Source: a virus. Taken from it: DNA of 64,000 nucleotides. The position numbers and the translations under genes are program-made. Positions 6,789 to 42,985 of this stretch are shown here, in pieces. The notes beneath the pieces were generated by a model that worked only from the letters and a program-made list of their open reading frames with translations, was not told the DNA's origin and did not search any database. The stretch lies in IMG/VR virus record IMGVR_UViG_3300020055_000004; one strand, given 5' to 3'. Each line of letters starts with the position of its first letter. The first letter of the stretch is position 1.

Positions 6789-8489
6789 ATGTTATATTTT
6801 AAGAAAGTCCGCTGGCAGAATTTTCTTTCTACTGGCAATCAATTTACTGAGATTCTTCTCAATAAATCACAATCAACTTTAATAGTCGGTGAGAATGGTG
6901 CTGGAAAATCAACGATGTTGGATGCAATCTCATTTGCATTATATGGTAAACCGTATCGTAATATCAATAAGCCTCAGTTAGTCAATAGTATTACTAATAA
7001 AGGTGCACTCGTAGAGATTGAATTTTCAGTCAAAGGTAAAGATTATTTAGTTCGTCGTGGTATCAAACCAGCCAGATTTGAGATTATATGTGATGGTGTT
7101 CTCCTCGATCAAAATGCAAGTGTAAGAGAATATCAAGAATATCTCGAGAAAAATATTCTTAAACTCAATCATAAATCTTTTACACAGATTGTAGTTATTG
7201 GTTCTGCTAACTTTGTCCCATTCATGCAGATGAAAGTATGGGAACGTCGATCCATCATCGAAGATTTACTTGATATTGAAATCTTTACGAAGATGTATAA
7301 TGTACTCAAAGAAAGAATCTCGGCCAATAAAGACGAAGTCATCTCAGCCAAATATAAGATCGATCTACTCGATGAAAAGATTACATTAACACGAAAACAT
7401 CTCAATGAAATTGCATCGATGAAAAAGTCAGATCGCGATGCCAAACTTAAACAGATTGCAGAACTCGAGAAAAAATTAATTCAATCCCGCGGTCAACATG
7501 AATTGTTTACTAGTCAAATTAAAGAAATGCAAGACAGTATTTCTGACTCAAAGAAGACTCACGATAAAAAACAAAAACTAGCTCATCTTAAATTTCAATT
7601 AGAACATAAAGTAAAATCTATACAAGATGAAATTACTTTCTTTGAAAACCATGACGATTGTCCAACATGTACACAAACAATCGGCGATCTTATTAAGCAG
7701 CGCGCTATAGATGATAAGACCACAAAACAAAAAGAAATTGAACAAGCTGTGACTGATATGTCTTCTCACTTTAACGAAGTCGAAGAACGATTGGCATATG
7801 TTGATAAAGTACAGCACGCGATCTCAGCTGCCAATCAAGAGTTAATGAATATTAATAGTGAGATCATGACAACCACTAACTCTATTGAGGCAGTCAAATC
7901 GAGTATAGGTGATAAGATAATCGAAGAACCAAAAGATGATCTCGATTCTCTCAATAAGGATTTAAATGATGCAAAAACAAAACACGAATCGTTACTATAT
8001 CAGAAAGAACTTTTCGATCGCGCTACATCTTTATTGAAAGATGGTGGTATCAAAGCCAAGATCATTCGACAATATGTGCCAATCATTAACAAATTGATGA
8101 ACAAATATTTGGCAGCAATGGAGTTCTTTGTACAATTCGAGTTAGATGATCAATTTAATGAGAAGATCAAGTCCAGATTTCGTGATGAGTTTACGTACGA
8201 TTCTTTTAGTGAAGGAGAGAAGATGCGTATTGACTTATCACTCCTTTTTACATGGAGAGCAGTGGCTAAGCTACGCAATTCTACGACCACCAATTTATTG
8301 ATTATGGACGAGGTGTTTGATAGCTCGCTTGATACTACAGGTACCGATGAGTTTATGAAACTCATTACTCAATTAACACAAGACACCAATGTCTTTGTTA
8401 TCAGTCATAAGGGTGATCAACTCTTTGACAAATTCCATAGTAATATTCGCTTTGAGAAAGTGAAGAATTTTTCACAAATAGCAGCATAG
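6789..8489 (+). CDS. gp46: Recombination ATPase subunit gp46 (Rad50/SbcC-like)
   Basis: GENGAGKS, CPTC zinc hook, FSEGEKMRIDL signature, MDEVFDSSLD, ISH. Confidence 0.97.
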   Translation: MLYFKKVRWQNFLSTGNQFTEILLNKSQSTLIVGENGAGKSTMLDAISFALYGKPYRNINKPQLVNSITNKGALVEIEFSVKGKDYLVRRGIKPARFEIICDGVLLDQNASVREYQEYLEKNILKLNHKSFTQIVVIGSANFVPFMQMKVWERRSIIEDLLDIEIFTKMYNVLKERISANKDEVISAKYKIDLLDEKITLTRKHLNEIASMKKSDRDAKLKQIAELEKKLIQSRGQHELFTSQIKEMQDSISDSKKTHDKKQKLAHLKFQLEHKVKSIQDEITFFENHDDCPTCTQTIGDLIKQRAIDDKTTKQKEIEQAVTDMSSHFNEVEERLAYVDKVQHAISAANQELMNINSEIMTTTNSIEAVKSSIGDKIIEEPKDDLDSLNKDLNDAKTKHESLLYQKELFDRATSLLKDGGIKAKIIRQYVPIINKLMNKYLAAMEFFVQFELDDQFNEKIKSRFRDEFTYDSFSEGEKMRIDLSLLFTWRAVAKLRNSTTTNLLIMDEVFDSSLDTTGTDEFMKLITQLTQDTNVFVISHKGDQLFDKFHSNIRFEKVKNFSQIAA

Positions 8490-8691: not shown

Positions 8692-8920
8692 TAAGTGGAA
8701 CGGTGAAGCAGATCCAATCGGAGATGTAGTATTCGAAAGAATTATGCAACTATATAATGGTGAAAGAGTTGAAAAACCTTTACATTATCCCTCGATTGAT
8801 GTAGAATGGTTAATTAAGGATATGAGAAGTATATGTGAACAGTGTTGGTTTCTAGACATTTCACTAAAACAGCTCATGGATATGGTATATGATGAAATCG
8901 CAGGTATAAAAGATGAGTAA
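8678..8920 (+). CDS. Hypothetical protein
   Basis: GGAG RBS; overlaps neighbours. Confidence 0.5.
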   Translation: MAKNDKWNGEADPIGDVVFERIMQLYNGERVEKPLHYPSIDVEWLIKDMRSICEQCWFLDISLKQLMDMVYDEIAGIKDE

Positions 8921-9326
8921 AGATTGGGCAAGTGATATCGCATCCATGCATGATAAGTATGGTGTCCGCGAGTGGGTAAAGAATAATCCTGAGAAGTTGA
9001 AAGAGTTTCTCGCATTTCGTTTGAAGTTTGTACAAGAAGAATTCCAAGAAACATTGGAAGCTGCAGTCAATAATGATCCAGAAGAGCTGGTAGATGGTCT
9101 GATCGATCTTTGTGTTGTTGCAATAGGTACCCTTGATGCATTTGGTATCGATGCTCACAAAGCTTGGGATGTGGTCTATGCAGCTAATATGGCCAAAGAG
9201 ATTGGTGTTAAAGAATCTCGGCCGAATCCACTTGGTCTACCAGATCTAGTCAAGCCAGAAGGATGGCAAACACCATCACATGCCGGCAATCATGGTATCT
9301 GGGAAGAGATGGCCAAGTCTGAATAA
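8913..9326 (+). CDS. All-alpha NTP pyrophosphohydrolase (MazG/PRA-PH-like), candidate dCTPase/dUTPase
   Basis: EEFQE...ELVDGLIDL acidic metal motif, ANMAK, DLVKPEGW. Confidence 0.8.
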   Translation: MSKDWASDIASMHDKYGVREWVKNNPEKLKEFLAFRLKFVQEEFQETLEAAVNNDPEELVDGLIDLCVVAIGTLDAFGIDAHKAWDVVYAANMAKEIGVKESRPNPLGLPDLVKPEGWQTPSHAGNHGIWEEMAKSE

Positions 9327-9330
9327 AGCA

Positions 9331-9359
9331 TGTACATGTGTCTCGTTTTATAGTAGAAT
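9331..9359 (+). promoter_or_regulatory. Early-type promoter TGTACA-N17-TAGAAT
   Basis: Exact motif and spacing; heads the modification cluster. Confidence 0.8.
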
Positions 9360-9386
9360 ATAATCTTCACACACAGGAAATATATT

Positions 9387-10034
9387 ATGAATTATCAAAT
9401 TGCTTATCAGGAACTCGGCGCCACTAAATTTTTACGTACTCATGGTCGCGATGTAGTAGAAATCCTAGGACATAATGTTACTGTAAATAAAATCAATCGG
9501 TTTTTAGGTTCTCGTGGTAGTAATGTCTCGGATTTCTTTTGGCGAAATCGAAATCGATTGCACATCTATGGCATGTCTGTCGTCCAAGTAAATGAGAAAT
9601 GCCGAATTAAAATTAATGCTATTGGCCCCCGCGGCAACGTATTAAATTTTGTTGAAAATACTAATAAGCAACCTAATAAATTGGAGCCAGAAATGAAAGA
9701 ATCTCTTAAGGTTCTGCAAGAATGTGCTGAAGTACAAGTTAAAAAGTCAAACGACTATCAAAATGAATTCTCCCGCATTCGTCAAGCAGATTACTATCCT
9801 CGTGGTATCGCAACCATTACAGATCTAATCTATGCTAAAGTTCTTCGTATGCAATCAGTCATTGAAGCTAGTGAACGAGATCCTAACTATGAACCGAACT
9901 TCGAATCAATCGAAGATTCAGCTAAAGATCTAATCAACTATGCATCTTTTGTTGTTGCATATATGCGTGGTAAGATGGATGGACAAGAATCTAACCGTGA
10001 CTTTCTTAATAGGATCGTAAATGATTCAGAATAA
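9387..10034 (+). CDS. Nucleotide-modification-associated domain 1 (Nmad1/DUF1599-like) with N-terminal extension; possible internal start at 9693
   Basis: KKSNDY...K..R...ESIEDSAKDLINYASF; GGAG before ATG 9693. Confidence 0.7.
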   Translation: MNYQIAYQELGATKFLRTHGRDVVEILGHNVTVNKINRFLGSRGSNVSDFFWRNRNRLHIYGMSVVQVNEKCRIKINAIGPRGNVLNFVENTNKQPNKLEPEMKESLKVLQECAEVQVKKSNDYQNEFSRIRQADYYPRGIATITDLIYAKVLRMQSVIEASERDPNYEPNFESIEDSAKDLINYASFVVAYMRGKMDGQESNRDFLNRIVNDSE

Positions 10035-10698
10035 AGTAGAAGACATTCGTTGTTACTTTAAACAAGCTCTTCACGAGAAACGTTTCACCACAGATAAGAC
10101 TGGTCAAAAGACTATAGAACTTATTGGTGCTTCATTTCTCGCTGACGAGCCATCTATCTTTGGTAAACCGAATCAAAAATATATCAAGGCCGAAATCCAG
10201 TGGTATATGTCTCAGTCTACCAATATTAATGACATATATAGTAGAGATCGTAAACCACCAGAAGCATGGCAATATAGTGCTGATGCAAATGGTGAAATCA
10301 ATTCTAATTACGGCTATCTCATTTATAACGAACGCTTTGGTAATCAATATAAGCAAGTTCGTGATGAGATGATGAAGAATCCATACGGTCGCCGTGGTAC
10401 TATGATCTACAATCGACCATCAATATGGCACGAGTACAACGAGGGTGGCAAGTCAGACTTTATTTGTACCAATGCTGTAAGCTACTATCTTCGAGATCAT
10501 AAGCTACATGCAGTGGTTCAGATGCGCTCTAATGATGTAGTCTTTGGTTATAAGAATGACTATGCATGGCAACGATTTGTACTTGAAAATCTTGCATATG
10601 ATATTAGCCTACCACAACACGATGTTGGTGTTGGTACAATCACGTGGCAAGTACAAAATCTTCACGTATATGAACGACACTTTGATTTGGTAGAATGA
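10021..10698 (+). CDS. gp42: dCMP hydroxymethylase (gp42-like, thymidylate synthase fold)
   Basis: INSNYG, IYNRPS, DFICTN (catalytic Cys), MRSNDVVFGYKNDYAWQ with Asp at the dCMP-specificity position, LHVYERHF. Confidence 0.88.
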   Translation: MIQNKVEDIRCYFKQALHEKRFTTDKTGQKTIELIGASFLADEPSIFGKPNQKYIKAEIQWYMSQSTNINDIYSRDRKPPEAWQYSADANGEINSNYGYLIYNERFGNQYKQVRDEMMKNPYGRRGTMIYNRPSIWHEYNEGGKSDFICTNAVSYYLRDHKLHAVVQMRSNDVVFGYKNDYAWQRFVLENLAYDISLPQHDVGVGTITWQVQNLHVYERHFDLVE

Positions 10699-11111
10699 GA
10701 GTAGGATTTACTGCTTCAGCATTTGATCTATTACACGCCGGACATGTCTCAATGCTAAGAGAGGCAAAGACACAGTGTGACTATTTGATTTGTGGTTTAC
10801 AAGTAGATCCTGGTCTCGATCGATTAGAGAAAAACAAACCAATACAAACTTTACCGGAAAGATATATACAATTGTCAGCTGTAAAATATGTTGATGAGAT
10901 TATACCTTATGAAACAGAAATTGATTTGAAGGATATCTTAGAAACATTAAAAATCGATGTACGTATTCTTGGTGACGAGTATCGTAATCTAGATTTTACT
11001 GGCAAAGAGATATGCCAACAACGTGGCATTGAATTATATTTCAATCAACGAGATCATAGGTTTTCAACAAGTGATCTAAGAAAAAGAGTAACGTTATGTA
11101 CGGAGTCTTAA
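10695..11111 (+). CDS. Cytidylyltransferase (TagD / glycerol-3-phosphate CT-like)
   Basis: FDLLHAGH (HxGH), ER..QL.AVKYVDEI, RDHRFSTS. Confidence 0.88.
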   Translation: MRVGFTASAFDLLHAGHVSMLREAKTQCDYLICGLQVDPGLDRLEKNKPIQTLPERYIQLSAVKYVDEIIPYETEIDLKDILETLKIDVRILGDEYRNLDFTGKEICQQRGIELYFNQRDHRFSTSDLRKRVTLCTES

Positions 11112-11572
11112 TTGGTATTATACTTGCACTTGGTGGTGCAGGTTATTGGTACTATGATACAACACAGGCCGAACTTATATATTTAAAAACACATAATGCT
11201 GCACTCGAGTCTGCAATTGAAACTCAAAAGGAAACATTGAATCAAATGCAAGAAGCAGCTGAACTTCAAAGTAAATCTATCAATGAGTTAACGGTTGCCA
11301 ATCAACAAGCAGAACAAGAGATGAATCGCTATCTCAGTATCTTTGCTCGTCATGATCTAACGAGGCTCGCGGCTGCTAAGCCAGGACTAATTGAAACAAG
11401 AGTAAACAGAGGAACGAAAGATGTATTCGACAGCATTGAAAATGCTTCTCGTGCTATCGATCTCCTTGACGACGGGGTGCAGCTTTCTGCGAACTCCGGA
11501 GCCGGAGGTAGTGATACAAACGAAAGTAGTACGAGTGCCGATAACACAACCGATTCTACCTCGGGAAATTGA
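11096..11572 (+). CDS. Putative inner-membrane spanin (Rz-like)
   Basis: N-terminal TM helix, coiled coil, AKPGLIETRVN; overlapped by a lipoprotein gene. Confidence 0.7.
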   Translation: MYGVLIGIILALGGAGYWYYDTTQAELIYLKTHNAALESAIETQKETLNQMQEAAELQSKSINELTVANQQAEQEMNRYLSIFARHDLTRLAAAKPGLIETRVNRGTKDVFDSIENASRAIDLLDDGVQLSANSGAGGSDTNESSTSADNTTDSTSGN

Positions 11573-11810
11573 ACTTCGTGATCCTCAGTTCTATGTCGTA
11601 TCGGCAAAGAATTTAGACGAGTTTATTGCGCGAGTAGAAAAAGAGTCAGGACAAGTTGTATTCATCGCGATGAGCGTTGCAGATTACGAATTGATGTCCT
11701 ATAATATGCAAGAAATCAAACGATATGTACAGCAGATGCAAGATGTGGTAGTATATTATCGTAGGGTAGTTGAAGACAACAATTCGAAAGTAGATGATAA
11801 CAACAACTAG
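11421..11810 (+). CDS. Putative outer-membrane spanin lipoprotein (Rz1-like)
   Basis: Signal peptide with lipobox LTTGC, Pro-rich linker; overlaps the Rz-like gene in another frame. Confidence 0.7.
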   Translation: MYSTALKMLLVLSISLTTGCSFLRTPEPEVVIQTKVVRVPITQPILPREIELRDPQFYVVSAKNLDEFIARVEKESGQVVFIAMSVADYELMSYNMQEIKRYVQQMQDVVVYYRRVVEDNNSKVDDNNN

Positions 11811-12975
11811 ATATTATGATGAGTTTATAAGGTACTTTAATTTAGCCTCTAAACAACAAGAGCTATGTAATGTATCTAATAAAGAACCTTATGGGATGAT
11901 CGCACACAAAGATTCGAATCTTGGTGATGATCTCATGGAGAATGTTGAATTGTATGATGTAGTCGAGCGTAAGTATGCTGGCTTCTCACAAATTATTAAT
12001 GATTGCTTTTATGGATGGACTGAAGATCATCCATATTGGAAAAAGATGGAGGCGGGTGTGTGCACTCGCCAACGAGAGACCGTTGCCAAAGACTGGACCG
12101 GTAAACACAACGTATTCTCTCTTCCTGAATGGCTGTATATTTTTATACTCCATCGGGTAACCGGTTCAGCAATTAACTATGCCCAAAAACCATCGGGCTA
12201 TTATAACACCATACTATTCAATCTACATCAATGTGATACGATTGAAGAAATGGTGCAGCTGGTGAAACACTACCCGGTATCCTTTTATACTTCAGTCGGA
12301 TACCAGTTCCCAGCATTTCCAAAACCAGTCGGTGACTATCGAAAGGGCGGCGACTATTACCTTGGTGAGTTCGCCCCAAGGCTGGCTCGAGATCTCGCGG
12401 ACCATTTGACGATGGGTCCTAAAAAGGACCTTCGCGAGATTGGAGAGTTTATGCTGAAGTGGAACGAGGACAACGGCCTTCGACGCTATCAGTTTCAGTA
12501 CGCAGCAGTAGTGGCTGACGTCGCCGACTGGTTTCCCCAATATGTGAACCGTGAGAGCATGTTCTATTACGGTACAAATGCAGTAGAATGTATTTCATAC
12601 CTCGCTTTTCCAGAAAAGAGGATGAAGAAAGAGTTGTTCCTTGATGCCGTCATGACAAAAATATATGATGATACAGGAAGTGTACCATATAATGCCGAAG
12701 ATGTATGTTGTGACTTCATTCGTTATGTTGAGAATTATGTCCGGCCAGGTCCGGATTATGATCATCTAGATTATGATACCCTGTGGTCGTCATGCGGCAT
12801 CAAGGATCACCCCTATGGCCGCCAGAAGTATATGCTAGATTTGGGTTTGGTAAATACTTTTAATGGCATGAAAAATCATCCATCTGATGACTTCATTTTG
12901 AAGAAAAACAATATGACTGCTGAAGAGTATCAACATAATGTAAATGCGAGGCTCCGATACAATGAAAATTTTTGA
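11794..12975 (+). CDS. aGPT-Pplase-like (HhH-fold) DNA base hypermodification protein, paralog 1
   Basis: Motif series DDLMENVELYDVVER / FQYAAVVAD / YGTNA / NAEDVCCDFIRY parallels aGPT-Pplase1 blocks (DPIL..YRF.NV.R / FMAYE..TD / GPGA / DIEHSLCEFDKY). Confidence 0.6.
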   Translation: MITTTRYYDEFIRYFNLASKQQELCNVSNKEPYGMIAHKDSNLGDDLMENVELYDVVERKYAGFSQIINDCFYGWTEDHPYWKKMEAGVCTRQRETVAKDWTGKHNVFSLPEWLYIFILHRVTGSAINYAQKPSGYYNTILFNLHQCDTIEEMVQLVKHYPVSFYTSVGYQFPAFPKPVGDYRKGGDYYLGEFAPRLARDLADHLTMGPKKDLREIGEFMLKWNEDNGLRRYQFQYAAVVADVADWFPQYVNRESMFYYGTNAVECISYLAFPEKRMKKELFLDAVMTKIYDDTGSVPYNAEDVCCDFIRYVENYVRPGPDYDHLDYDTLWSSCGIKDHPYGRQKYMLDLGLVNTFNGMKNHPSDDFILKKNNMTAEEYQHNVNARLRYNENF

Positions 12976-13222
12976 TTTAGAACAACAGATCTTAGATTGT
13001 TGGAAAGTAACTGACGACATTGATTTGGTGACAAAACATTTTGTTGATAGTCCAGAATGGGAAGGCATTGATCCAAAAGTTTGTGATGCGCTGATGAACA
13101 AGTATTTTGCTATCAAAGAACTGTATGAATTGAAGTTCAATGAGATGTGGGAATCCTTTGAGACAGTATGTAAAGAATATCATGAGGCAAGAAAAAATGA
13201 CGCTGACTCACTTTCTAGGTGA
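12962..13222 (+). CDS. Hypothetical protein
   Basis: FDLEQQILDCW.VTDDI phage-type small protein; RBS. Confidence 0.6.
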   Translation: MKIFDLEQQILDCWKVTDDIDLVTKHFVDSPEWEGIDPKVCDALMNKYFAIKELYELKFNEMWESFETVCKEYHEARKNDADSLSR

Positions 13223-14189
13223 ACATGATAATGATATTCAATACAATAATATCGCTGAAGTAGATTACAAAAACGGCAAACCAACATCATCGTGGCTAAA
13301 AGACTGGTGCCAAGAAGCTCGAACGAATAAGTTCTTCGAGTTTTGTCGTGCCTATGACGAGCGTAAAGACTTCCTGCTCAAGAATAACTATCAACAGTTC
13401 TCACATCGTTTGCACTGGCATGAGTGCCCGTTTGTCGAGGAAATGGCACAATTAAAAGATCGTGCCAAATTAATCGAAGGATGTGTCCTGTTTTCTTTTA
13501 GCAACGAGCATTGGCAAACATTTAGAGCATGGAAAGATCATGGCTATGATGGCATGAAGGTACGGTTCTCGAATTATCGGCATGCACGTTCTGATCTCTT
13601 TCAGATCTATTATCCAAAAGATACCAAAGTCAAAGATTGGTTGATTGAAACACCAGCTCGTGTAGCAATTGAACTAGATGCGATGTTTGATGGCATGAGA
13701 CGACCAATGACGATGATGGAGTTCGCCAAGAAGATGAATATCATCATGGTACGCGATTTTGGTTTTCGTAATGCCATGTATCCGTCAAAGAATGCAGCAC
13801 GCCATGTTGCAATGAGTCATCCTGAATGGGTTGATCCTGACTCATTCTTACATGGCGGAACGGGATACTTCGATGGTCTATCACAAATCTTTGACTGTCC
13901 ACATCTCATGTCAAAATCAAAGTATGAGATCGATGAGAATGGTGAATACGTACCAATGAATAAGTGGGCAGAGATGCAGGTCCAACACATGGACTATCTA
14001 AAGAATCATCCTAGCAATCCGATTCATACACATCAGTATCTCAACTTAGAAGACAAATTGTGTATGCATTATAAATTTATGTCGATGAAACTTGGTTCCA
14101 AAAAACAGACAAAAATGATACCATATAACTGGGTGTATCCAGACAATTGGTCACTAAAAACAAATAGGTACGATCGTGTCACACAATAA
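13197..14189 (+). CDS. aGPT-Pplase-like DNA modification protein, paralog 2
   Basis: DFLLKNNYQQFSHR / GFRNAMY / GGTGYFDGL / NLEDKLCMHYKF mirror the blocks in paralog 1. Confidence 0.55.
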   Translation: MTLTHFLGEHDNDIQYNNIAEVDYKNGKPTSSWLKDWCQEARTNKFFEFCRAYDERKDFLLKNNYQQFSHRLHWHECPFVEEMAQLKDRAKLIEGCVLFSFSNEHWQTFRAWKDHGYDGMKVRFSNYRHARSDLFQIYYPKDTKVKDWLIETPARVAIELDAMFDGMRRPMTMMEFAKKMNIIMVRDFGFRNAMYPSKNAARHVAMSHPEWVDPDSFLHGGTGYFDGLSQIFDCPHLMSKSKYEIDENGEYVPMNKWAEMQVQHMDYLKNHPSNPIHTHQYLNLEDKLCMHYKFMSMKLGSKKQTKMIPYNWVYPDNWSLKTNRYDRVTQ

Positions 14190-15057
14190 TCATGTAATCG
14201 ATGGCGTTAATAAAGACGTAGGAGTTTTTGGCTATGAAGCAGCAAGAGAATATTATCTATCTTTGTGCGAAGGATGGGAACCGTACAACCCCGAACCGGT
14301 TGTACGAGAACACGATGGCATTCGAGTCGTACGAGATGACCTTATCGTGGGGACAAAAGCGAGAGCTGGAGATCTCCTTGCAAGTCGATGCCCCTCAGAC
14401 ACAATTGTATACTGTCAACCTCGCACCGGACTCGCCGGAGTTTCCATATTGGACTGTGCAAAACGATATAATAAAGACGTAATACTATTCATGCCATCGT
14501 CTCAGCGCGTCTCTTTACATCAGGCATGCTGCATTGAACGTGGCGCTAAACCTATCTTTAAACGTATCGCCGCTATGCCAAATTTAAACAAAGCAGCTAA
14601 AGAATATGCAGAGAAACACGGATACTTTTTTGTCCCACTCGGACTTAGACATGAATTGGCGACTGCAGCTATAGTACACACTGCTATACAAATACCAGAA
14701 CCTGAAGAAGTATATGTGGCTACATCGACAGGTGTACTTAGTAGGGCATTGCAAATCGCGTGGCCAAGAGCTAAGTTTACGAGTATCGCAGTGGCGAGGA
14801 ATCTTAAAGCCGGAGAATTAGGAAGAGCAGATGTCATATCAGAACCACTCGCTTTTACAGCATCTGAAAAGAAACAAAATTTACCTCCATTTCCTTCGAT
14901 TGATACGTACGATGGAAAAGTCTGGAAGTACATTCCAAAAAACACGGGTCGGGATATTCTGTTTTGGAATGTTGGTACTGAACCTAGTTTACAAGACCAT
15001 AACATATATGATAGAATAGATTCATATCGCGATTGGGAGAAAAAAGATGTTGCGTAG
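14176..15057 (+). CDS. PLP-dependent enzyme, fold type II (ACC deaminase / Cys synthase-like)
   Basis: VRDDL..GTKAR (Schiff-base Lys), VATSTGVL, TYDGKVW, ILFWNVG. Confidence 0.8.
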   Translation: MSHNNHVIDGVNKDVGVFGYEAAREYYLSLCEGWEPYNPEPVVREHDGIRVVRDDLIVGTKARAGDLLASRCPSDTIVYCQPRTGLAGVSILDCAKRYNKDVILFMPSSQRVSLHQACCIERGAKPIFKRIAAMPNLNKAAKEYAEKHGYFFVPLGLRHELATAAIVHTAIQIPEPEEVYVATSTGVLSRALQIAWPRAKFTSIAVARNLKAGELGRADVISEPLAFTASEKKQNLPPFPSIDTYDGKVWKYIPKNTGRDILFWNVGTEPSLQDHNIYDRIDSYRDWEKKDVA

Positions 15058-16150
15058 TGGTTTAGTAGCTACACCGTTTATTACTATTTCACGCCAAATG
15101 ACCAGCCATCGTGCTGCTCAAGGTGTAATATATGCAGATCAACTTTCTGAGGCCAATATTGGTACAATTAAAGTAAACATGACAGGTGATCAGTATGTCT
15201 CCGATTTTTGTGATTTCGATGATCTTTATGTGTATCATGGTAATGATTGGTCTGGTAACGTTAATCTCTTTGGCGGCCTCAAAAACTTCCCATATATTGA
15301 GAATTTTGTCAATTTCTCTCGTTTCGACGGCCGTGTGTATAGCCTTGTGGTCGACATGCCTGACTATTATGGTATCATGAAAGAAAAGTTTGATAAAGCC
15401 AGAGAGAAAGGACAAGAATGGAATACTTTATGGGATGGCATTGATTGGGATAATCTGAAGCGCATGTGTGAAACTGCAGTGACAATCAATCCTAATGATC
15501 TACGACATTATCCTCGCATGGCAATTGGTGACAGCCATGCCATTTGTATGTACCGACCAGGCTGGTCAAATCTATCAGTGCCATTTAAAACACTACACGG
15601 CGCATTAAAAGAAGGTCTTGAATCTTTTATTCCGAAAGATAGATGTTTTACTGATCTAGAATTTTATTTTGGCAACATTGATGTTCGTCATCATCTTTGT
15701 AGACAAGATGATCCAATTCTTGCTACTAAACAACTTGTTGCTCGTTATATGGAACAAGCACATGCCATATCACAAAAATATAGTTGCCGTGTCAAGATCT
15801 ATGAACTCTTGCCTATCGAAGACGAATCACGATCGATTCCAAAAACTGGTTGGTATAAAGGCACTCCATTTTATGGCTCGCGCCAAGAGAGAAATGATAT
15901 TCGTAAGTTGTTTAAAAATGAAGTAATGAAGCGTTGTACTGATGAAGTTCAGATATATGAATGGGTTGGCGAAATGATTAATTCAAAAGGCGAACTTGGT
16001 TTTGAATACATGGAGAAACCACAGTCGGTGCACTTATCTAGACGCTGGTATCCACATTGGCAAGGATATGAGTGGAGTCATGCTCCGTATATTGAATATA
16101 TACCTACAGCAGAACGTGAACAATTAACGCTTGAGGATTTCTTTTCGTAA
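15047..16150 (+). CDS. Putative DNA-modifying enzyme: beta-glucosyltransferase-like N-domain + SGNH domain + clamp-binding tail
   Basis: NLFGG...RVYSLVVD resembles T4 BGT NFFGG...KIYYLFTD; IGDSHA, FGNID, SVH SGNH blocks; C-terminus LTLEDFFS. Confidence 0.55.
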   Translation: MLRSGLVATPFITISRQMTSHRAAQGVIYADQLSEANIGTIKVNMTGDQYVSDFCDFDDLYVYHGNDWSGNVNLFGGLKNFPYIENFVNFSRFDGRVYSLVVDMPDYYGIMKEKFDKAREKGQEWNTLWDGIDWDNLKRMCETAVTINPNDLRHYPRMAIGDSHAICMYRPGWSNLSVPFKTLHGALKEGLESFIPKDRCFTDLEFYFGNIDVRHHLCRQDDPILATKQLVARYMEQAHAISQKYSCRVKIYELLPIEDESRSIPKTGWYKGTPFYGSRQERNDIRKLFKNEVMKRCTDEVQIYEWVGEMINSKGELGFEYMEKPQSVHLSRRWYPHWQGYEWSHAPYIEYIPTAEREQLTLEDFFS

Positions 16151-17358
16151 TGAAGCATGCAACTATTATACCACTGATCGGAGGTGAAGTACTTGCCTCT
16201 GAGCAAGTCTTTGGTCATCGACCAGATTATATCTTATCTTATAATGCTTTTCAGGCAAATGAAGAACATCTACTAAATTATTGGAATCATGAGGTACCGT
16301 ACTACGTTCTAGATGAAGGAGATCGCCATCCGCACTCAGTAGACGTAGTGTCCAGTGTATGTCCTTGTGCTGGCTTGTCATTGTTCAGTACGCGTTATGG
16401 AGAGGACAACAAAAACAATCGTTGGATGATTGAAACGGCTAAGTATGTTCTTGGCGAGATCAAGCCTCTTGTATTTTGGGGAGAGAATGCCCCAACTTTC
16501 ACGGGTAAAATCGGTGAACCTATTCGAAACCAATTGATTCAAATTGGTAAGGAGAATGGCTATGTCATGTCGATGTATAAAACGAAAAGTCTGTTACACG
16601 GTATACCACAAACGCGCGAGCGAACATTCTACTTCTTTTGGAAAGGTACACAAGTTCCGGTATTTGACTACTATCGAAGAGAAATGCAAACTATCGAGGA
16701 CCTTATCCTCTCCGTCGAGCGCGATCCTAATGATCCGATGTCCGAATGCATAAATCGAAACAAACCAACCGACAATCCATTTTACAAATATATTTTGGAG
16801 GAGATTCATGGCGGTATTAGCCATCGCGACCACTTTGACCTTATCGATATCACTGATCCTAAAACACCGAATTACTTGGACGTCTATAGCCTTATTGAGT
16901 CTCATAAGCATGATTACGCTCGCGTTGCTAAATGGTTAGAGGAACGTCAATATCATCGTGAATCACAGCGTGCATTGCGAATGTATGATAAGCTAGAATC
17001 TGGTGGTAATATTATGCGCAGAGGTACTTTGTTGCCTAAAGGTCATATTGGATCTTTTGTAGGTCACTATCCACAAATGCTAACTCATCCTCATGAAGAT
17101 CGATATATAACCTTTAGAGAGGCGATGACAATTATGGGTATGCCAAGTGACTATCAGCTTCTTAATCCGAAAGGTAGCTTCAATCATATATGTCAGAATG
17201 TTCCGTTTCAAACTGCAGCTGATATGGCAACCGAAGTAAAAGCTGTATTAAATGGAGAACGAGAATTGATTGACGCGCGCGTATCATTACAACATAATAC
17301 ATCAAAAAAATTAGAAATTTTAGATAGAGAAGTATCTACACTAGATGCATTTTTATAG
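16150..17358 (+). CDS. C5-cytosine DNA methyltransferase-like protein with atypical motif I
   Basis: CPCAGLS (IV), ENAP (VI), PQTRERTF (VIII), RYITFREAMTIMG.P (IX), QNVP (X); motif I is IPLIGG. Confidence 0.8.
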   Translation: MKHATIIPLIGGEVLASEQVFGHRPDYILSYNAFQANEEHLLNYWNHEVPYYVLDEGDRHPHSVDVVSSVCPCAGLSLFSTRYGEDNKNNRWMIETAKYVLGEIKPLVFWGENAPTFTGKIGEPIRNQLIQIGKENGYVMSMYKTKSLLHGIPQTRERTFYFFWKGTQVPVFDYYRREMQTIEDLILSVERDPNDPMSECINRNKPTDNPFYKYILEEIHGGISHRDHFDLIDITDPKTPNYLDVYSLIESHKHDYARVAKWLEERQYHRESQRALRMYDKLESGGNIMRRGTLLPKGHIGSFVGHYPQMLTHPHEDRYITFREAMTIMGMPSDYQLLNPKGSFNHICQNVPFQTAADMATEVKAVLNGERELIDARVSLQHNTSKKLEILDREVSTLDAFL

Positions 17359-17387
17359 TGTACAAATATTTTAAAACAGTGTAGAAT
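17359..17387 (+). promoter_or_regulatory. Early-type promoter TGTACA-N17-TAGAAT
   Basis: Exact motif. Confidence 0.8.
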
Positions 17388-17410
17388 AGAACTTTTAGTG
17401 AGGTTAAACT

Positions 17411-18385
17411 ATGGAACTTAATATTCCAGTACAAGAGTTACAAAAATATAAAATCTTTTTGGCGACACCAATGTATGGTGCACAATGTTCTGGAATGTAT
17501 GCTAGATCGTTGGCTGAATTGACAACAACATGTCAGCGATATGGCATTCCATTACAATTTTATTTTCTATTCAATGAATCGTTAGTTACACGAGCACGTA
17601 ATTATTGTGTAGATGAATTTATGCGATCTGATTGTACACATCTTATGTTCATTGATTCAGATATTCATTTTAAGGCACATGATGTAGTATCTCTATTAGG
17701 AATGATGCATCAATATCCTGAGATGGATGTATGCTGTGCTCCTTATCCGAAGAAAACAATTGCGTGGGAAAAAATTAGTGAAGCAGTAAAACAAGGTGTA
17801 GCTGATGAGAATCCAAATGTTCTAGAAAACTTTGTTGGTGATTATGTCTTCAATCCTATTAGACAAAAAAATGGTGAAAATTATATTAAACTAACTCAAC
17901 CTGCAGAAGTAGCTGAGGGTGGTACAGGCTTCATGATGATCAAGAAGTCAACCTTTGAAAAATATAAAGAAACATATCCTCAATTCATGTATCGTCCTGA
18001 TCATGTTCGAACAGCAAACTTTGATGGAAGTACTGAGATCATGGCATACTTCGATGCTCTCATTGATGATAAGTCACAAAATCTTGTACCTGAAATCAAA
18101 GCATTCTTTAAAAAGAATCCAAATGCAAAAAATAGAGATGTCATCAACTTTATTGAAGATAAGAAAAATGGCATCGATCAAAAGTCATATTCGAATAGAT
18201 ACCTGTCCGAAGATTACATGTTTTGTTATAATGTAAGACGTGCTGGTATGAAAGTATTCATGTGTCCTTGGATGGAACTCAAACATATGGGCGCATACGT
18301 ATTTGGTGGTTCATTGGCAGCTATTGCATCTATTGGTGCAGCGGCTACAGCTGATCCCTCTAAACTTGGTGAAAAGAAAAAATAG
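17411..18385 (+). CDS. GT-A fold glycosyltransferase-like protein
   Basis: ATPMYG, ESLVTRARN, THLMFIDSDI (DxD), GTGFMMI, YLSEDYMFC. Confidence 0.75.
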   Translation: MELNIPVQELQKYKIFLATPMYGAQCSGMYARSLAELTTTCQRYGIPLQFYFLFNESLVTRARNYCVDEFMRSDCTHLMFIDSDIHFKAHDVVSLLGMMHQYPEMDVCCAPYPKKTIAWEKISEAVKQGVADENPNVLENFVGDYVFNPIRQKNGENYIKLTQPAEVAEGGTGFMMIKKSTFEKYKETYPQFMYRPDHVRTANFDGSTEIMAYFDALIDDKSQNLVPEIKAFFKKNPNAKNRDVINFIEDKKNGIDQKSYSNRYLSEDYMFCYNVRRAGMKVFMCPWMELKHMGAYVFGGSLAAIASIGAAATADPSKLGEKKK

Positions 18386-18396
18386 GAAACTATACT

Positions 18397-19053
18397 ATGA
18401 AACTTAATGCTCGATCTGTACAGGTCTTGAAAAACTTCTCAACAATTAATCCTTCGATTCAATTTCGCGAAGGTAATGCGTTGAAAACAATCTCGCCTAA
18501 TAAGACTATCATGGCAAAAGCAAATCTCGAGGATAATATTCCTCAGGACTTTGCAATCTATGATTTGTCTAGATTTCTTGGTGTATCATCTTTGTTTGCA
18601 GATCCGGACTTTCAACTTGAAGATCGTACTGTAGTGATTACATCACCGGGTCGTAAGGTAAATTACACCTTTGCAGATCCTAACACTATTGTTGCACCAC
18701 CTAACAAAGATATCGATATTGGTGACGCTGATGTATCATTTGAACTCAATCAAGAAAACTTCGCCGAAATTATGAAAGCTCTTGGTGTAATGTCATTTCC
18801 TGAGTTGGTGGTTGCTGGTGAAGATGGTCGTATTATTTTACGAGCCACTGATACTAAGAATCCAAGTTCAGACAAATATGATATTGAAGTTGGTGAGACT
18901 GATCGAACATTCACCGCAGTATTCAAGACAGAAAATGTCAAGATCTTACCAGATAATTATCGTGTAAGTTTGTCATCGCGTGGCATCTCACACTTCGCTT
19001 CAGACGATGTTGAATACTGGATCTCAATTGAATCCAACTCAACATTCGACTAA
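18397..19053 (+). CDS. gp45: Sliding clamp gp45
   Basis: VLKNFSTINPSI, FAIYDLSRFL, ENVKILPDNY.V, YWISIE. Confidence 0.95.
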   Translation: MKLNARSVQVLKNFSTINPSIQFREGNALKTISPNKTIMAKANLEDNIPQDFAIYDLSRFLGVSSLFADPDFQLEDRTVVITSPGRKVNYTFADPNTIVAPPNKDIDIGDADVSFELNQENFAEIMKALGVMSFPELVVAGEDGRIILRATDTKNPSSDKYDIEVGETDRTFTAVFKTENVKILPDNYRVSLSSRGISHFASDDVEYWISIESNSTFD

Positions 19054-19504: not shown

Positions 19505-20743
19505 ATGGGTACGAAAAGGAGTTACAAACCGGAGGCAGTAGATAAGCTACGAGGATCAGTACAAATTGATCATACACTCGCGAGGCTTGGAGCAAGGAAG
19601 CTGAGACAACTATTCGAAGAAAACGAATATATTAACACATTTGGTGCATACAATGGGCAACAAGCTGTACAACATGTCAAGGCAGGATTAAAAGCAATCT
19701 ATTGTTCTGGTTGGCAGGTAGCAGCATCTCAGAACTCGGCCGGCGAAGTATATCCGGATCAATCCTTGTATCCTGTAAACTCTGTACCTGATGTTGTTCG
19801 AAATATTAATAATGCGTTTAGGCGACAAGATCAAATTGATGTATTAAATGGTGGAGATGGTTTTGATTTTGCACCTATTATCGCAGATGCAGAAGCTGGA
19901 TTTGGAGGAGTACTAAACGCATATGAACTGGCACGAAATCTCATTGAAGCCGGTGCTGCAGCTGTGCATTTCGAAGATCAGCTCGCTTCTGAAAAGAAAT
20001 GCGGACACCTCGGTGGTAAAGTACTTATTCCGACTAGCAGTGCTGTTCGTAATCTTAACGCCGCTCGACTTGCTTCTGATGTGGCTGGTACTGACACAGT
20101 CATCATTGCCAGAACAGATGCAGAATCTGCTAAACTCCTTTCATCTGACGTAGATGCAATGGATAACAAATATATCAAGAGATATGGTGGTCAAGGATCC
20201 GCTACAATGCGATCTCGTACATCAGAAGGTTTCTTTGAAATTAATGGCGGTTTAGATTTTTGTATAGAACGAGGTCAGAGATATGCAGAGTACGCTGACC
20301 TGATATGGTGTGAAACCTCGAAGCCTTGTCTTAAGGAAGCAAAAAGATTTGCTGACGGCGTACGTGGCGCATATCCTGATCAAATGCTAGCATATAATTG
20401 TTCGCCTTCTTTTAATTGGAAGAAAGCAATTCCAAATGATCAAGAACTTGCAGAGTTTCAACGTGAGTTAGGTAAGTTAGGATTTAAGTTTCAGTTTATT
20501 ACATTAGCTGGCTTTCATGCAACAAACTATGCTGTTTTTGACTTCGCTCGACGATATAAAGAAGATGGTATGTTTGCCTATTCATTATTGCAAGAAGATG
20601 AGTTTAACAGTGAAATCTTTGGATATACTTCAACCAAACACCAACAAGAAGTTGGAGTCGGATACTTTGATGCAATATCTAACGTGCTTGGTTCTTCGTC
20701 AACGGCTGCACTCAAAGGTTCCACAGAAGAAGAACAGTTTTAA
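19505..20743 (+). CDS. aceA: Isocitrate lyase
   Basis: [40 protein letters not shown] signature, [32 protein letters not shown]. Confidence 0.97.
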
Positions 20744-21447
20744 TGGATTTGATTAAGAGCAAGTTTGACATTAAGGGTTGGACTCTCTTAACAAATTTTT
20801 TGACACCAGAAGAACACGAATATTATCTCGATATATGTGATCATATTCTTCTTAATAGAATTCAGCCGTCATATAAATGGGCGCTCAACTCAAATGGTAC
20901 TATAAACAAATTACACGGTGCTTGTGAGACCGTCCCTGCATTTCGAAAATTGGCCAGTCATCCATCTTTGATTCGTCAGGCTAAAAGCTTATTGCCATTT
21001 GAAGAAGAAATGGATATCTATATCAGTAAGTTCTTCCCTATGCAGCCAAAAGCAATTTCTACTTTGATGCATCAAGATAATTATTTTTTTCGTGGAGATC
21101 CTCAAAAAATATTATCATGTGCTGTATATCTTCAAAATACATCAACAGAAAACGGATGTCTGCGTGTTGTTGAAGGTAGTCATTTGAGAGGTATATTTCC
21201 TCATAATATTGATGAGGAAGGAATTGCTCAGTGGATCGACCAGCGAGAACTTACAGATTATAAAATAATAGAACTTAATTTAAAAGCACCTTATGCTGTA
21301 TTTTTTAACATAAATCTAGTGCACGGCTGCAGTATGAATATGACTGATTCAACTCGATACAGTTTAGCATGGGAATATGTAAATAAAACCGACAATAATT
21401 TGACGGTTTCCGCTGAAAAATGGTGTGATAGAATTTCTGTCTTATAA
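20743..21447 (+). CDS. Phytanoyl-CoA dioxygenase-family 2OG-Fe(II) oxygenase
   Basis: HQD, ENGCLRVVEGSH, LVHG, R. Confidence 0.85.
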   Translation: MDLIKSKFDIKGWTLLTNFLTPEEHEYYLDICDHILLNRIQPSYKWALNSNGTINKLHGACETVPAFRKLASHPSLIRQAKSLLPFEEEMDIYISKFFPMQPKAISTLMHQDNYFFRGDPQKILSCAVYLQNTSTENGCLRVVEGSHLRGIFPHNIDEEGIAQWIDQRELTDYKIIELNLKAPYAVFFNINLVHGCSMNMTDSTRYSLAWEYVNKTDNNLTVSAEKWCDRISVL

Positions 21448-40447: not shown

Positions 40448-42985
40448 ATGACTGAATTTTACACAAACGTTTTACAATACGGTCAAAGCCTTTACATACG
40501 AGGCTTCGACTCCGATGGACAACGCCTGCAGCGCCGCGTACCTTATCAACCATATCACTTCGTTTCTTCGAATGTTGAGACTGGTTATACGGATATTCAT
40601 GGTAATCCGGTGCAACGGAAAGATTTCGACTCAATACGTGATGCTCGTGATTTCCTCAAACGATATGAGGAAGTCGAGGGCTTTAATGTATTCGGTCTAG
40701 ATCGTTACCCTTACACCTTTATATATGATAATTTCAAGTCGCAAGATCCTGACACATCAAAAATCAATATCGTCAATATCGATATCGAGGTGGCATCCGA
40801 TGATGGATTCCCAGAGCCTGAAGACGCCGACAAAGAGATCACAGCCATTGCTCTTCGTCGACGCAATCTAAAGGTCGTACTCGGCTGTGGTGACTTTACA
40901 CATGATGAAGAAAATCTATACTATATCAAGTGTAAAAACGAGTACGGCCTCTTGCATAAATTCCTTGATATCTGGCAACAAATGGATCCTGACGTGGTGA
41001 CTGGTTGGAACACAGAGTTTTTCGATATTCCATATCTTGTCAATCGTATCACCAAGATCTGTAGCGAAGATGCAGTCAAACGTATGTCGCCTTGGGGTAT
41101 CATCAAAGAAAAGAAAGTCTATCGTCAAGGTAGCGACAAGCAATCTCAGACGTATCAACTTTTTGGTGTCTCTGCTCTCGATTATTTGGCCGTGTACAAA
41201 AAGTTTCGACTTCAACCTCGCGAGTCATACAAACTGGACTTCATTGCCGAGACTGAACTTGGTACCAAAAAGTTAGACTACAGCGAGTACGGTAATCTAC
41301 ACGAGTTGTACAAGAACAACTATCAAAAGTTTATTGAATACAACATTAAGGATACTGACCTCATCTTCGAACTGGAAGAGAAGCTTGGCTTCCTCGAGCA
41401 AATCTTTACAATCGCATATGATGCTAAGGTCAACTTCAATGATGCTCTGGCATCTGTGCTCATATGGGATGTGATCATCCATAACTATCTCATGGATCAG
41501 AATAAAGTGGTGTCAATGAAACGACCACCGATGTCTGATCGTCGTATCGAAGGTGGTTATGTCAAAGATCCAATCGTAGGCATCCACAATTGGGTAATGT
41601 CATTCGACCTCAACTCTCTGTATCCACACTTGATTCAGCAATATAACATATCACCCGATACGGTGCTCAATAAGTTCGATGATCTATTTCCTATTACAGC
41701 TAAAGCATCAGTTGATAATTTACTCAGTGAAGATATCGATCTCACTGAACTTAAAAACTTTGATGTCACTATGACACCAAATGGAAAAATATATCGACGA
41801 GATCGCCAAGGTTTCTTGCCTGCTCTCATGAAAAAGATGTACGATGATCGTGTATTATATAAGAAGAAGATGCTCGAGTGTAAGCAAGCATATCAAGAAA
41901 ATCCTACACGTCAACTCGAGATTGATATCTCTCGTTATCATAATCTACAACACGCCAAAAAGATCCAGCTAAACTCAGCTTATGGTGCACTTGCTAACAA
42001 ATACTTTCGTTGGTTCGATAATGAAAACGCCGAAGCTATTACGATGGCTGGTCAATTGTCCATTCGATGGATCGAGAAGAAACTTAACACGTGGCTCAAT
42101 GATATTCTCAAAACGAAAGGTAGAGATTATGTCATTGCTATTGACACCGATTCAGTGTATGTTTCATTTGATAAGATGATTGAACTAACACAACCAAAAA
42201 ATCCTGTAGAGTTTCTTAATAAAGTTGCCGATAAACAAGTTGAACCATTCATCGATCGATCATATCAAGAACTGGCAGACTACACCAATGCCTATGCACA
42301 GAAGATGTTTATGAAGCGAGAGAATATCGCCGATAAAGCCATCTGGACTGCCAAGAAGAGATACATCATGCATGTATGGGATTCGGAAGGTGTACGTTAC
42401 AAAGAACCTGAACTAAAGATGATGGGTATCGAAGCTATTCGTTCGAGTACTCCGGCCGTATGTCGTGACTATATTAAACAGACACTTAAACTACTGATGA
42501 CCACTGACGAAGAGACAGTGCAGAAATACATTGCCAAGATTCGCGAAGAGTTTCGTACATTGTCATTCGAAGAAGTGGCCTTCCCTCGTAGTTGTAACTT
42601 TATCAAGTGGGAACGTAACTCTCAAGGTAAAGCGTATCCATCGACGTATGCAGATGACAAGATCATATACAAGAAAGCTACACCGATTCAGGTCAAAGGT
42701 GCTCTACTGTACAACTGGTATTTAGATAAATATAACTTGAAGAAACGATACGAAGAGATTAAGTCTGGCGAGAAAATTAAGTTCAGCTATCTCAAGAAAC
42801 CAAACCCGATACACGACTCGGTGATATCGTGTCCTGATGTACTACCACGAGAATTCAATCTCAACGAGTACATTGATTACGACACACAGTTCGTGAAAGG
42901 CTATCTCGATCCGATAGAAATCATACTTCATGCTATCGGATGGAAGTCGGAAAAAGTATCAACACTCGAGGATTTTTTCTCATGA
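40448..42985 (+). CDS. gp43: Family B DNA polymerase gp43
   Basis: DIEV ExoI, GWNTEFFDIPY, SFDLNSLYPH, KIQLNSAYG, IDTDS, KKRY; clamp tail STLEDFFS. Confidence 0.98.
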   Translation: MTEFYTNVLQYGQSLYIRGFDSDGQRLQRRVPYQPYHFVSSNVETGYTDIHGNPVQRKDFDSIRDARDFLKRYEEVEGFNVFGLDRYPYTFIYDNFKSQDPDTSKINIVNIDIEVASDDGFPEPEDADKEITAIALRRRNLKVVLGCGDFTHDEENLYYIKCKNEYGLLHKFLDIWQQMDPDVVTGWNTEFFDIPYLVNRITKICSEDAVKRMSPWGIIKEKKVYRQGSDKQSQTYQLFGVSALDYLAVYKKFRLQPRESYKLDFIAETELGTKKLDYSEYGNLHELYKNNYQKFIEYNIKDTDLIFELEEKLGFLEQIFTIAYDAKVNFNDALASVLIWDVIIHNYLMDQNKVVSMKRPPMSDRRIEGGYVKDPIVGIHNWVMSFDLNSLYPHLIQQYNISPDTVLNKFDDLFPITAKASVDNLLSEDIDLTELKNFDVTMTPNGKIYRRDRQGFLPALMKKMYDDRVLYKKKMLECKQAYQENPTRQLEIDISRYHNLQHAKKIQLNSAYGALANKYFRWFDNENAEAITMAGQLSIRWIEKKLNTWLNDILKTKGRDYVIAIDTDSVYVSFDKMIELTQPKNPVEFLNKVADKQVEPFIDRSYQELADYTNAYAQKMFMKRENIADKAIWTAKKRYIMHVWDSEGVRYKEPELKMMGIEAIRSSTPAVCRDYIKQTLKLLMTTDEETVQKYIAKIREEFRTLSFEEVAFPRSCNFIKWERNSQGKAYPSTYADDKIIYKKATPIQVKGALLYNWYLDKYNLKKRYEEIKSGEKIKFSYLKKPNPIHDSVISCPDVLPREFNLNEYIDYDTQFVKGYLDPIEIILHAIGWKSEKVSTLEDFFS

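Follow-up and report, generated by a model that had tools for sequence, protein, structure and literature searches.

The thymidine hypermodification pathways of phages M6, ViI, PaMx11, SP10 and phiW-14 reportedly combine a dUMP hydroxymethylase, a 5-hydroxymethyluridine DNA kinase (5-HMUDK), an amino-acid:DNA transferase (AADT, aGPT-Pplase clade 2) and tailoring enzymes of the pyridoxal phosphate (PLP), radical S-adenosylmethionine or FAD type (Lee et al. 2018 and 2021, Wen et al. 2024). To our knowledge, all amino-acid and polyamine hypermodifications worked out to date reside on thymine, and all need the DNA kinase. The T4 pathway leads through 5-hydroxymethylcytosine (hmC) and comprises the gp56 dCTPase, gp42, gp1 and the alpha- and beta-glucosyltransferases. 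Here we describe a gene cluster of an uncultured T4-like phage, located at positions 8913-18385 of a 64,000-nucleotide stretch of DNA (IMG/VR record IMGVR_UViG_3300020055_000004; the whole stretch is called the window below), which probably makes a hypermodified cytosine starting at hmC. The original prediction for this DNA had paired an amino-acid-transfer toolkit with hmC, and the pairing is supported by a dCMP-type gp42, by the modelled folds of two paralogous proteins and by the missing DNA kinase. The module it forms is real, conserved and widespread, and we describe it best as a variant of the thymidine hypermodification pathways that lacks the kinase and is directed at cytosine.

With the pathways of the M6 and ViI type the cluster shares a homolog of thymidylate synthase (TS) leading to a 5-hydroxymethyl pyrimidine, a pair of aGPT-Pplase proteins with a helix-hairpin-helix (HhH) fold and a Glu/Cys motif, a PLP enzyme, and an action that is likely post-replicative, on DNA. 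It differs in that the hydroxymethylase is cytosine-specific, and that a protein with a GDSH domain and an N-terminus like that of T4 beta-glucosyltransferase (BGT) stands beside the helical domain instead of a P-loop 5-HMUDK. The PLP enzyme is of the cysteine-synthase type (fold II, beta-replacement), whereas those of M6 and ViI are decarboxylases (PMC8989533), and the two paralogs fall below the Pfam AADT and HMUDK_hel models. The T4 hmC pathway resembles the cluster in its gp42 (53% identity to the ortholog described here), the adjoining NTP pyrophosphatase, a protein with a BGT-like N-domain and the T4-like replication background; the cluster, however, has no gp1, no recognisable gp56 ortholog and no complete glucosyltransferase, and contains AADT-like and PLP enzymes instead.

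Two further cytosine modification systems are close to the one described here. In the 5-hydroxymethylcytosine carbamoyltransferase system found by MetaGPA (Yang et al. 2021, PMC8670742), a TobZ-type carbamoyltransferase does the transfer. That system, too, occurs in environmental phages, links a TS-homolog hydroxymethylase to PRA-PH/MazG proteins and uses hmC as a handle for an adduct other than a sugar, but the present cluster has no gene for a TobZ-type carbamoyltransferase. In the arabinosylation of 5-hydroxycytosine in RB69 and DLP3 (PMC13326640), cytosine hypermodification in T4-like phages is likewise opened by a gp42-like TS homolog; the enzymes of the RB69/DLP3 type carry Asn at ThyA position 169 and yield 5-hydroxy-dCMP, whereas the window enzyme carries Asp, like T4 gp42. 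The literature searched contained no report of an hmC kinase, of aminomethylcytosine or of AADT-type chemistry on hmC, and the hmC derivatives described in it were sugars or the carbamoyl group only.

Hydroxymethylase and nucleotide supply

The gene at 10021-10698 encodes a protein with the TS fold (PF00303, E 2.1e-16), which is 53% identical to T6 gp42 across 98% of its length. Certain gp42-like enzymes, such as RB69 gp48, yield 5-hydroxy-dCMP (Lee et al. 2026, PMC13326640), and the diagnostic sites described for the group are ThyA L143, where an acidic residue gives access to water and a hydroxymethyl product, Asp in place of N177 (dCMP as substrate) and Asn in place of D169, which is exclusive to the 5-hydroxy enzymes. 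In the window enzyme the positions equivalent to ThyA 143, 146, 169 and 177 are Asp146, Cys149 (the catalytic Cys, ThyA C146), Asp172 and Asp180, the last within 'KND'. All four are invariant in the nine aligned sequences (window and eight relatives). Two enzymes served as controls in the alignment: the 5-hydroxy-dCMP synthase RB69 gp48, only 27% identical to the window enzyme, has Asn at position 169 ('MRSQN' versus 'MRSND' around Asp172), and the dUMP hydroxymethylase PaMx11 gp51 has Asn at position 177. It is thus well supported by sequence that the gene encodes a cytosine-type enzyme, a predicted 5-hydroxymethyl-dCMP (5hm-dCMP) synthase and not a 5-hydroxy-dCMP synthase. The alternative that it acts on dUMP, which would have contradicted the original prediction, was decided in favour of dCMP by the D/C/D/D signature and the identity to T6 gp42.

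The cluster was followed in two phage lineages. In the lineage of the window 80 IMG/VR loci were examined of 406 found, and in a second lineage, which is not T4-like, 79 of 111. The D/C/D/D signature is present in all nine enzymes read in the lineage of the window and in 63 of 66 TS homologs of the second; none of the enzymes read was uracil-type.

The gp42-type gene adjoins, in both lineages, a gene for a MazG/PRA-PH-type NTP pyrophosphatase (8913-9326 in the window; PF01503, E 6.6e-12; phrog_671, E 1.4e-23). A linkage of PRA-PH domains with homologs of the hydroxymethylase had been seen before, in contigs with modified cytosine (PMC8670742). We consider the MazG protein a candidate dCTPase that would supply dCMP to the hydroxymethylase. 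It was rejected as an ortholog of T4 gp56, to which it has no pairwise similarity. A ThyX-type thymidylate synthase, also foreseen originally, is encoded on the plus strand at 56465-57127 (220 amino acids) and was located by its RHRxxSxxxxSxR-type signature RHRSFSFQEFSQR; its presence implies that dTMP is made separately.

The aGPT-Pplase-like proteins and ORF15047

The open reading frames ORF11794 (11794-12975) and ORF13197 (13197-14189; true start near 13197, as judged from homologs) have no match in Pfam, PHROG, NCBIfam or among PDB sequences, tblastn against phage records was likewise empty, and phmmer against PDB gave only noise-level hits. AlphaFold (AF2) models were built with metagenomic homologs and reached confidence scores (pLDDT) of 78 for ORF11794 and 91 for ORF13197. 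For both models the best solved structure was 8z2n (ORF11794: Z 9.4, root-mean-square deviation 4.0, 208 residues aligned; ORF13197: Z 10.0, 4.0, 217 residues, with a Foldseek probability of 0.97 for the top match), and the structures ranked after it were all helix-hairpin-helix glycosylases. The 8z2n structure is that of the 5-phosphomethyl-dU glycinyltransferase gp46 of phage PaMx11, which works through Cys247, with Glu243 nearby (PMC11472151).

The motif containing these two residues reads 'EVETILC' in PaMx11 gp46 and 'EVEHTLC' in the HMUDK_hel protein gp50 of the same phage. A Glu-x-x-x-Cys motif is present in ORF11794 (Glu302/Cys306, 'AEDVCC', in longer form 'AEDVCCDF'; invariant in 31 homologs) and in ORF13197 (Glu285/Cys289, 'LEDKLC'; invariant in 40 homologs). 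Judged from the motif and the aligned ranges, E302/C306 and E285/C289 would be equivalent to E243/C247 of gp46. Mutation of the Cys or the Glu kills the activity of M6 gp51 and ViI gp247 (PMC8989533). Database neighbours point in the same direction: an ortholog with 65% identity to ORF11794 is entered in BFVD as 'Amino acid:DNA transferase domain-containing protein' and the list continues with clade-1/HMUDK_hel proteins of phiW-14, SP10 and phiRSL1, and in the ESM Atlas neighbours of the paralogs carry PF18723/PF18724. Fold and motif together support the assignment of both proteins to the aGPT-Pplase superfamily, which agrees with the aGPT-Pplase/HhH identity first proposed for them.

ORF11794 also contains, at residues 97-104 (12081-12104), a conserved stretch 'AKDWTGKH', which resembles a Walker-A-like A-x4-G-K motif inside an HhH-fold protein. 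W101, T102 and G103 are invariant in it, and K104 nearly so.

ORF15047 (15047-16150; phrog_13881) encodes a protein of 367 amino acids. Its N-terminal ~110 residues resemble the N-domain of T4 BGT (hhalign E 1.6e-4, probability 50%, 68 columns), and PF09198 matches 7 of 12 family members (best E 1.5e-4). These matches give modest support to a putative BGT-like acceptor domain for hmC-DNA at the N-terminus. Past residue ~105 there was no significant alignment with BGT, relaxed alignment included. The C-terminal domain has the invariant motifs GDSH (161-164), KTLxG, G185, GNID (209-212; GNIDxRxH) and SVH (327-329). Their order is SGNH-like, with atypical blocks III and V. The GDSH domain had no sequence match in Pfam or PDB, and a representative search with it returned only family members among the best 150 matches, with no remote link. 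The family is large: public data contain 792 clusters at 50% identity (E <= 0.001). Of the BGT-N/SGNH fusion assumed originally, the BGT-like part gained support from hhalign and PF09198, and for the SGNH part the motif order was found.

The relationship between ORF15047 and ORF11794 became apparent from fusion proteins. Nineteen long proteins carrying an ORF15047-like domain were surveyed, and in 12 of them the second part was BLASTP-similar to ORF11794 (E 4e-6 to 6e-51). In P0251, for example, residues 409-771 match ORF11794 with E 5e-50 and contain the motif EDVACDYIRYIENYV. Three further long proteins have PF18723 above the Pfam cut-off, in our own search (P0249, 43 bits; P0253, 39 bits) or in a precomputed table, together with FkbM/FtsJ methyltransferase domains. 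Another, P0248, has PF18723 in the precomputed table only. Fusions of an ORF15047-like domain with an ORF11794-like or HMUDK_hel domain were found in at least 17 proteins of other viruses. ORF11794 itself has no PF18723 match, though the partner domains of some fusions carry it. ORF13197 takes no part in the fusions surveyed; the fused protein P0266 matches both ORF11794 and ORF13197 by BLASTP. Three metagenomic proteins of 959-1001 amino acids (P0249, P0253 and P0254) are triple fusions, in which an FkbM/FtsJ-type methyltransferase is followed by HMUDK_hel and a C-terminal ORF15047-like domain. These hint at more variants of the pathway.

Cultured examples are provided by the Aeromonas phages 44RR and 31, which have a protein of 795 residues that begins with an ORF15047-like part of 335 residues. 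The remainder of the 44RR fusion has a weak match to PF18723 (E 0.0036) and the ExxCCQF motif 'EIACCQF'; BLASTP of ORF11794 against this half gave no match, and the link is made by the PF18723 match and the motif. The gp42 of 44RR is of the hydroxymethyl type ('MRSND', 'RND'). Phage 31 and the avDM phages likewise combine a gp42 of this type with the fused ORF15047-like/HhH protein. The fusion gene of this phage (44RR2.8t.2, L087 5992-8379) adjoins a gene annotated as sodium-dependent galactose transporter.

The fusions suggest that ORF15047 and ORF11794 would together form one two-part enzyme, which would have the layout of 5-HMUDK with the P-loop kinase exchanged. By this domain arrangement ORF15047 is likely a stand-in for the kinase, occupying its place. 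The canonical set of PaMx11 comprises the AADT gp46, the P-loop kinase gp49 and the HMUDK_hel protein gp50. Only three proteins of the window have a Walker-A motif, the T4-type gp46, gp44 and gp41. Searches for PF18748 and for small AAA_33-type kinases gave no match, either in the window or in four long records of relatives, including one that is 99% complete (167 kb), and a motif scan across this entire 167-kb relative detected no gp1-type and no other small kinase. The lack of a P-loop hmdU kinase, first noticed in the window, thus extends to a nearly complete relative.

The C-termini of ORF15047 (LTLEDFFS) and of the C5-methyltransferase-like protein encoded downstream (VSTLDAFL) resemble the terminal peptide of the gp43 DNA polymerase (40448-42985; VSTLEDFFS). 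In both families the L..F pattern at the end varies hardly at all. Clamp binding by the polymerase tail is known from T4. The resemblance suggests that ORF15047 and the methyltransferase-like protein may dock on the sliding clamp and act on replicating DNA.

Ordinary glycosylation of hmC has to be considered here. ORF15047 could be a BGT-like glycosyltransferase that has diverged but is still complete, perhaps aided by the GT-A-like gene at the end of the cluster; the HhH proteins would then be DNA-binding or base-flipping helpers, or glycosylase-like proteins of repair or anti-restriction, and the PLP enzyme would make an unusual sugar or donor. The size of ORF15047 (367 versus 351 amino acids of T4 BGT), its N-terminal match to BGT and an invariant DSD in the GT-like gene agree with such a role. 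The Aeromonas phages also fit: 44RR and 31 carry gene 42 but no known glucosyltransferase (PMC2993671, a 2010 review of T4-related genomes), and they possess the ORF15047-like fusion. The BGT alignment is, however, confined to the first ~105 residues, and the Glu/Cys pair is retained in the HhH partners, although glycosyl transfer does not require it and C5-methylene chemistry does. Simple glycosylation has no use for a cysteine-synthase-like PLP enzyme, which 77 of the 79 second-lineage loci encode, and the GT-like gene is also found in a phage that lacks gp42 (see below). We consider the glycosylation of hmC by these proteins unlikely.

PLP enzyme, conserved core and neighbouring genes

The gene at 14176-15057 belongs to phrog_7093 (E 9.5e-35). 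The Pfam PALP model gave 12.8 bits, below its cut-off of 35, and family profiles of the PLP enzyme (narrow set), ORF15047 and the GT-like gene found nothing in PDB. A more diverse profile of the PLP family (A10) matched 41 PDB sequences with a best E of 1.6e-4; almost all of these are cysteine synthases, O-acetyl- or O-phosphoserine sulfhydrylases or cystathionine beta-synthases. Gly59, Lys61 and Arg63 are invariant in the family, and the family Lys aligns on the Schiff-base Lys of the PDB motif 'KDR', which makes Lys61 a putative Schiff-base lysine. The fold-type II assignment proposed earlier for this enzyme is in keeping with these matches. Enzymes of the cysteine-synthase branch catalyse beta-replacement via an aminoacrylate intermediate.

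The only homologs of the PLP enzyme in cultured phages (~31-33% identity) occur in the Erythrobacter phages R6L and ZS04 and in the Microcystis phage Mae-JY30. They lie at KY006853 552-1238, in PV416405 and at PP438422 26815-27645, in features annotated 'DNA modification methylase' or 'ParB/sulfiredoxin', and may represent another DNA-modification context for the family.

Gene order differs between the two lineages. In the lineage of the window it is MazG, Nmad1, gp42, ORF11794, ORF13197, PLP enzyme, ORF15047, [methyltransferase], GT-like gene and gp45; in the second lineage the tightly packed genes follow the order ORF15047-like, ORF11794-like, PLP enzyme, TS and MazG. The ORF15047-like gene of the second lineage was complete in 75 loci, in 72 of which it is separate and lies just upstream of the ORF11794-like gene, and in three of which the two are fused. 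Homologs of ORF13197 were found in the window's lineage only; the 79 loci examined in the second all lacked one. The conserved core thus consists of MazG, gp42, ORF15047, ORF11794 and the PLP enzyme, and these five genes recur together in both lineages. That the genes could be mere neighbours in a T4-like replication region, forming no single pathway and leaving hmC unmodified or only methylated or glycosylated, is in our view very improbable: some genes of the region (cytidylyltransferase, spanins, GT-like gene and methyltransferase, described below) are indeed unrelated or optional, but the core five stay associated in two different phage backgrounds although their order has changed, and two of them are repeatedly fused.

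Genes of the dCMP-deaminase family bear on the question of which base is finally modified. They occur in or near the cluster in two relatives, G002 and G004; in G002 its immediate neighbours are gp42 on one side and the ORF11794 homolog on the other. The deaminase of a third relative (G001) is located ~55 kb away from the cluster, and the window has no deaminase homolog. The deaminase genes of G002 and G004 leave room, in those phages, for a route through hydroxymethyluracil (hmU): hm-dCMP, or hmC in DNA, would be deaminated and the AADT-like enzymes would then act on hmU to give a thymine-type base, as in ViI and M6. It is on account of these genes that the route retains some weight, and every characterised AADT works on DNA derived from 5-hydroxymethyldeoxyuridine (PMC8989533). 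The remaining evidence goes the other way. The hydroxymethylase signature is of the cytosine type in all nine enzymes read in the window's lineage and in 63 of 66 in the second, thyX is present, the canonical hmU kinase was not found in the window or the four related records, and the partner domain is similar to the part of BGT that binds hmC. A dCMP deaminase is encoded by T4 as well, where it contributes to the supply of dTMP. We regard an hmU-derived base as improbable.

The modification region is bounded by the gp46 Rad50-like gene (6789-8489) and the gp45 clamp gene (18397-19053). The gp43 polymerase of the phage is at most ~48% identical to cyanomyophage homologs, and at the nucleotide level the cluster had no megablast match in a set of 50,697 phage records. 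All genes named in the original prediction were found where it had placed them, on the plus strand; the run does not consist of modification genes alone, spanin-like genes being located at 11096-11810. As to membership in the pathway, the cytidylyltransferase, the methyltransferase and probably the GT-like gene fall outside the core.

The Nmad1 (DUF1599)-like protein (9387-10034; phrog_1485, phrog_18404) matches PF07659 weakly (22.5 bits, cut-off 25). In relatives tblastn covers ~112 of its 215 residues, the conserved part being the C-terminal ~110. The next gene after gp42 encodes a cytidylyl/adenylyltransferase-like protein related to RfaE domain II and TagD (10695-11111; PF01467, E 2.9e-13; TIGR02199, E 6.8e-22, and TIGR01518, E 1.1e-17, both under the cut-off). 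It has no homolog in any of the 80 related loci, was ruled out as the activating enzyme by this absence, and is a strain-specific accessory outside the conserved pathway. The Rz/Rz1-like spanin pair (11096-11572, with 11421-11810 nested; phrog_739, E 1.7e-15, and phrog_812, E 3.2e-13) has homologs in one related locus only (L002); it interrupts the cluster and is not a member of it. At the junction of gp42 and ORF11794 the window thus has the cytidylyltransferase and the spanins, and G002 has in the same slot its dCMP-deaminase-family gene (128711-129046). The junction appears to be a variable insertion point.

The protein encoded at 16150-17358 belongs to the C5-cytosine methyltransferase family (PF00145, E 4.6e-16, 59.6 bits, cut-off 22). 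The motifs PC (PCAGLS), ENA (GENA) and QTRER are present and invariant, and by these motifs it is a putative enzyme. Its family membership was predicted correctly. The gene is an optional accessory: only ~20 of the 80 related loci have it, and all 79 second-lineage loci lack it.

The GT-like protein (17411-18385; phrog_1574, E 3e-62) is only weakly GT-A-like (GT21, E 1.3e-3, and the DSD mentioned above). A homolog with 55% identity lies immediately upstream of gp45 in Stenotrophomonas phage DLP6 (L086 9001-9858). The whole DLP6 record contained no match to gp42, and the same search found gp42 in 44RR, which served as positive control. The GT-like gene was rejected as a pathway member by its presence beside gp45 in DLP6 without gp42, and it is probably not tied to hmC. 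Homologs occur also in Sinorhizobium phiM12-type, Caulobacter Cr30, Pelagibacter and some Synechococcus phages; phrog_1574 looks like a conserved 'far-T4' replication-region gene.

Positions 19505-21447, just past the gp45 clamp gene, encode a full-length isocitrate lyase (PF00463, E 1.5e-94) and, after it, a dioxygenase of the PhyH family; neither was found in the 80 related loci. Glyoxylate, a product of isocitrate lyase, is a precursor of glycine, and through it a link to amino-acid supply is conceivable.

Proposed pathway and its significance

Our interpretation of the cluster can be formulated as a sequence of four steps. In the first, the MazG-type pyrophosphatase and the gp42 ortholog would produce 5hm-dCMP, a step well supported by sequence, and hmC would reach DNA via the dNTP pool, as in T4. 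With no gp1-type dNMP kinase found, host kinases would be needed for this.

In the second step ORF15047 and ORF11794 would act on DNA as a two-part enzyme, as suggested by fusions, folds and motifs. ORF15047 would contribute the BGT-like hmC-DNA-binding N-domain, the GDSH domain and the polymerase-like C-terminal peptide; ORF11794 would contribute the HhH fold with Glu302 and Cys306, at the place of the helical domain of 5-HMUDK. The Cys would attack C6 of the flipped hmC, as amino-acid:DNA transferases do, and the GDSH domain would activate the 5-CH2-OH group, most likely with a non-phosphate ester as leaving group, or by direct acid-assisted loss of water. The outcome would be an exocyclic methylene.

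In the third step a nucleophile would be added, in the lineage of the window by ORF13197 (AADT-like, a candidate group transferase, with Glu285 and Cys289). In the fourth, the PLP enzyme may build or tailor an amino-acid-derived side chain by beta-replacement or beta-elimination. The C5-methyltransferase-like protein would be an optional extra, and the cytidylyltransferase, the spanins and the GT-like gene bystanders.

Several observations weigh against this interpretation, in addition to the deaminase genes of G002 and G004 and the possible BGT-like nature of ORF15047. The Pfam models PF18724 and PF18723 gave no match to ORF11794 or ORF13197 at E <= 10, and the PF18724-type control PaMx11 gp46 scores 97 bits on the Pfam AADT model. 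No significant hhalign alignment was obtained between the paralog profiles A1 or A2 and PaMx11 gp46, nor between A1 and A2, and middling Z values such as those of the two models can arise by chance between helical folds. An SGNH-like nature of the GDSH domain is suggested by the order of its motifs alone. The missing gp1-type kinase leaves the route of hmC into DNA incompletely explained.

The full proposal goes further than the formation of a hypermodified cytosine and is put forward as a tentative one. According to it, a large uncharacterised family, with a BGT-like hmC-binding N-domain and a GDSH domain, has replaced the P-loop kinase as the partner of the aGPT-Pplase helical domain and activates hmC in DNA without phosphate (for example through an acyl or other ester, or by direct dehydration). 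Acting together with the cysteine-synthase-like PLP enzyme, the family would equip cytosine with a side chain derived from an amino acid. The result would be a new base in many marine and freshwater phages and in the Aeromonas phages 44RR and 31.

The module is widespread in environmental viruses, and the cultured Aeromonas phages offer access for testing. New enzymes that modify bases in this manner are of practical use in epigenetic sequencing, and they help to explain how phages escape restriction and CRISPR. The proposed pathway may answer a question raised in the 2010 review (PMC2993671), namely the fate of hmC in the glucosyltransferase-less Aeromonas phages 44RR, 31 and 25. If the proposal is true, the C5-methylene transferase chemistry would be extended to cytosine, there would be a second way of activating a hydroxymethyl base, and a very large family of unannotated viral proteins would have a role.

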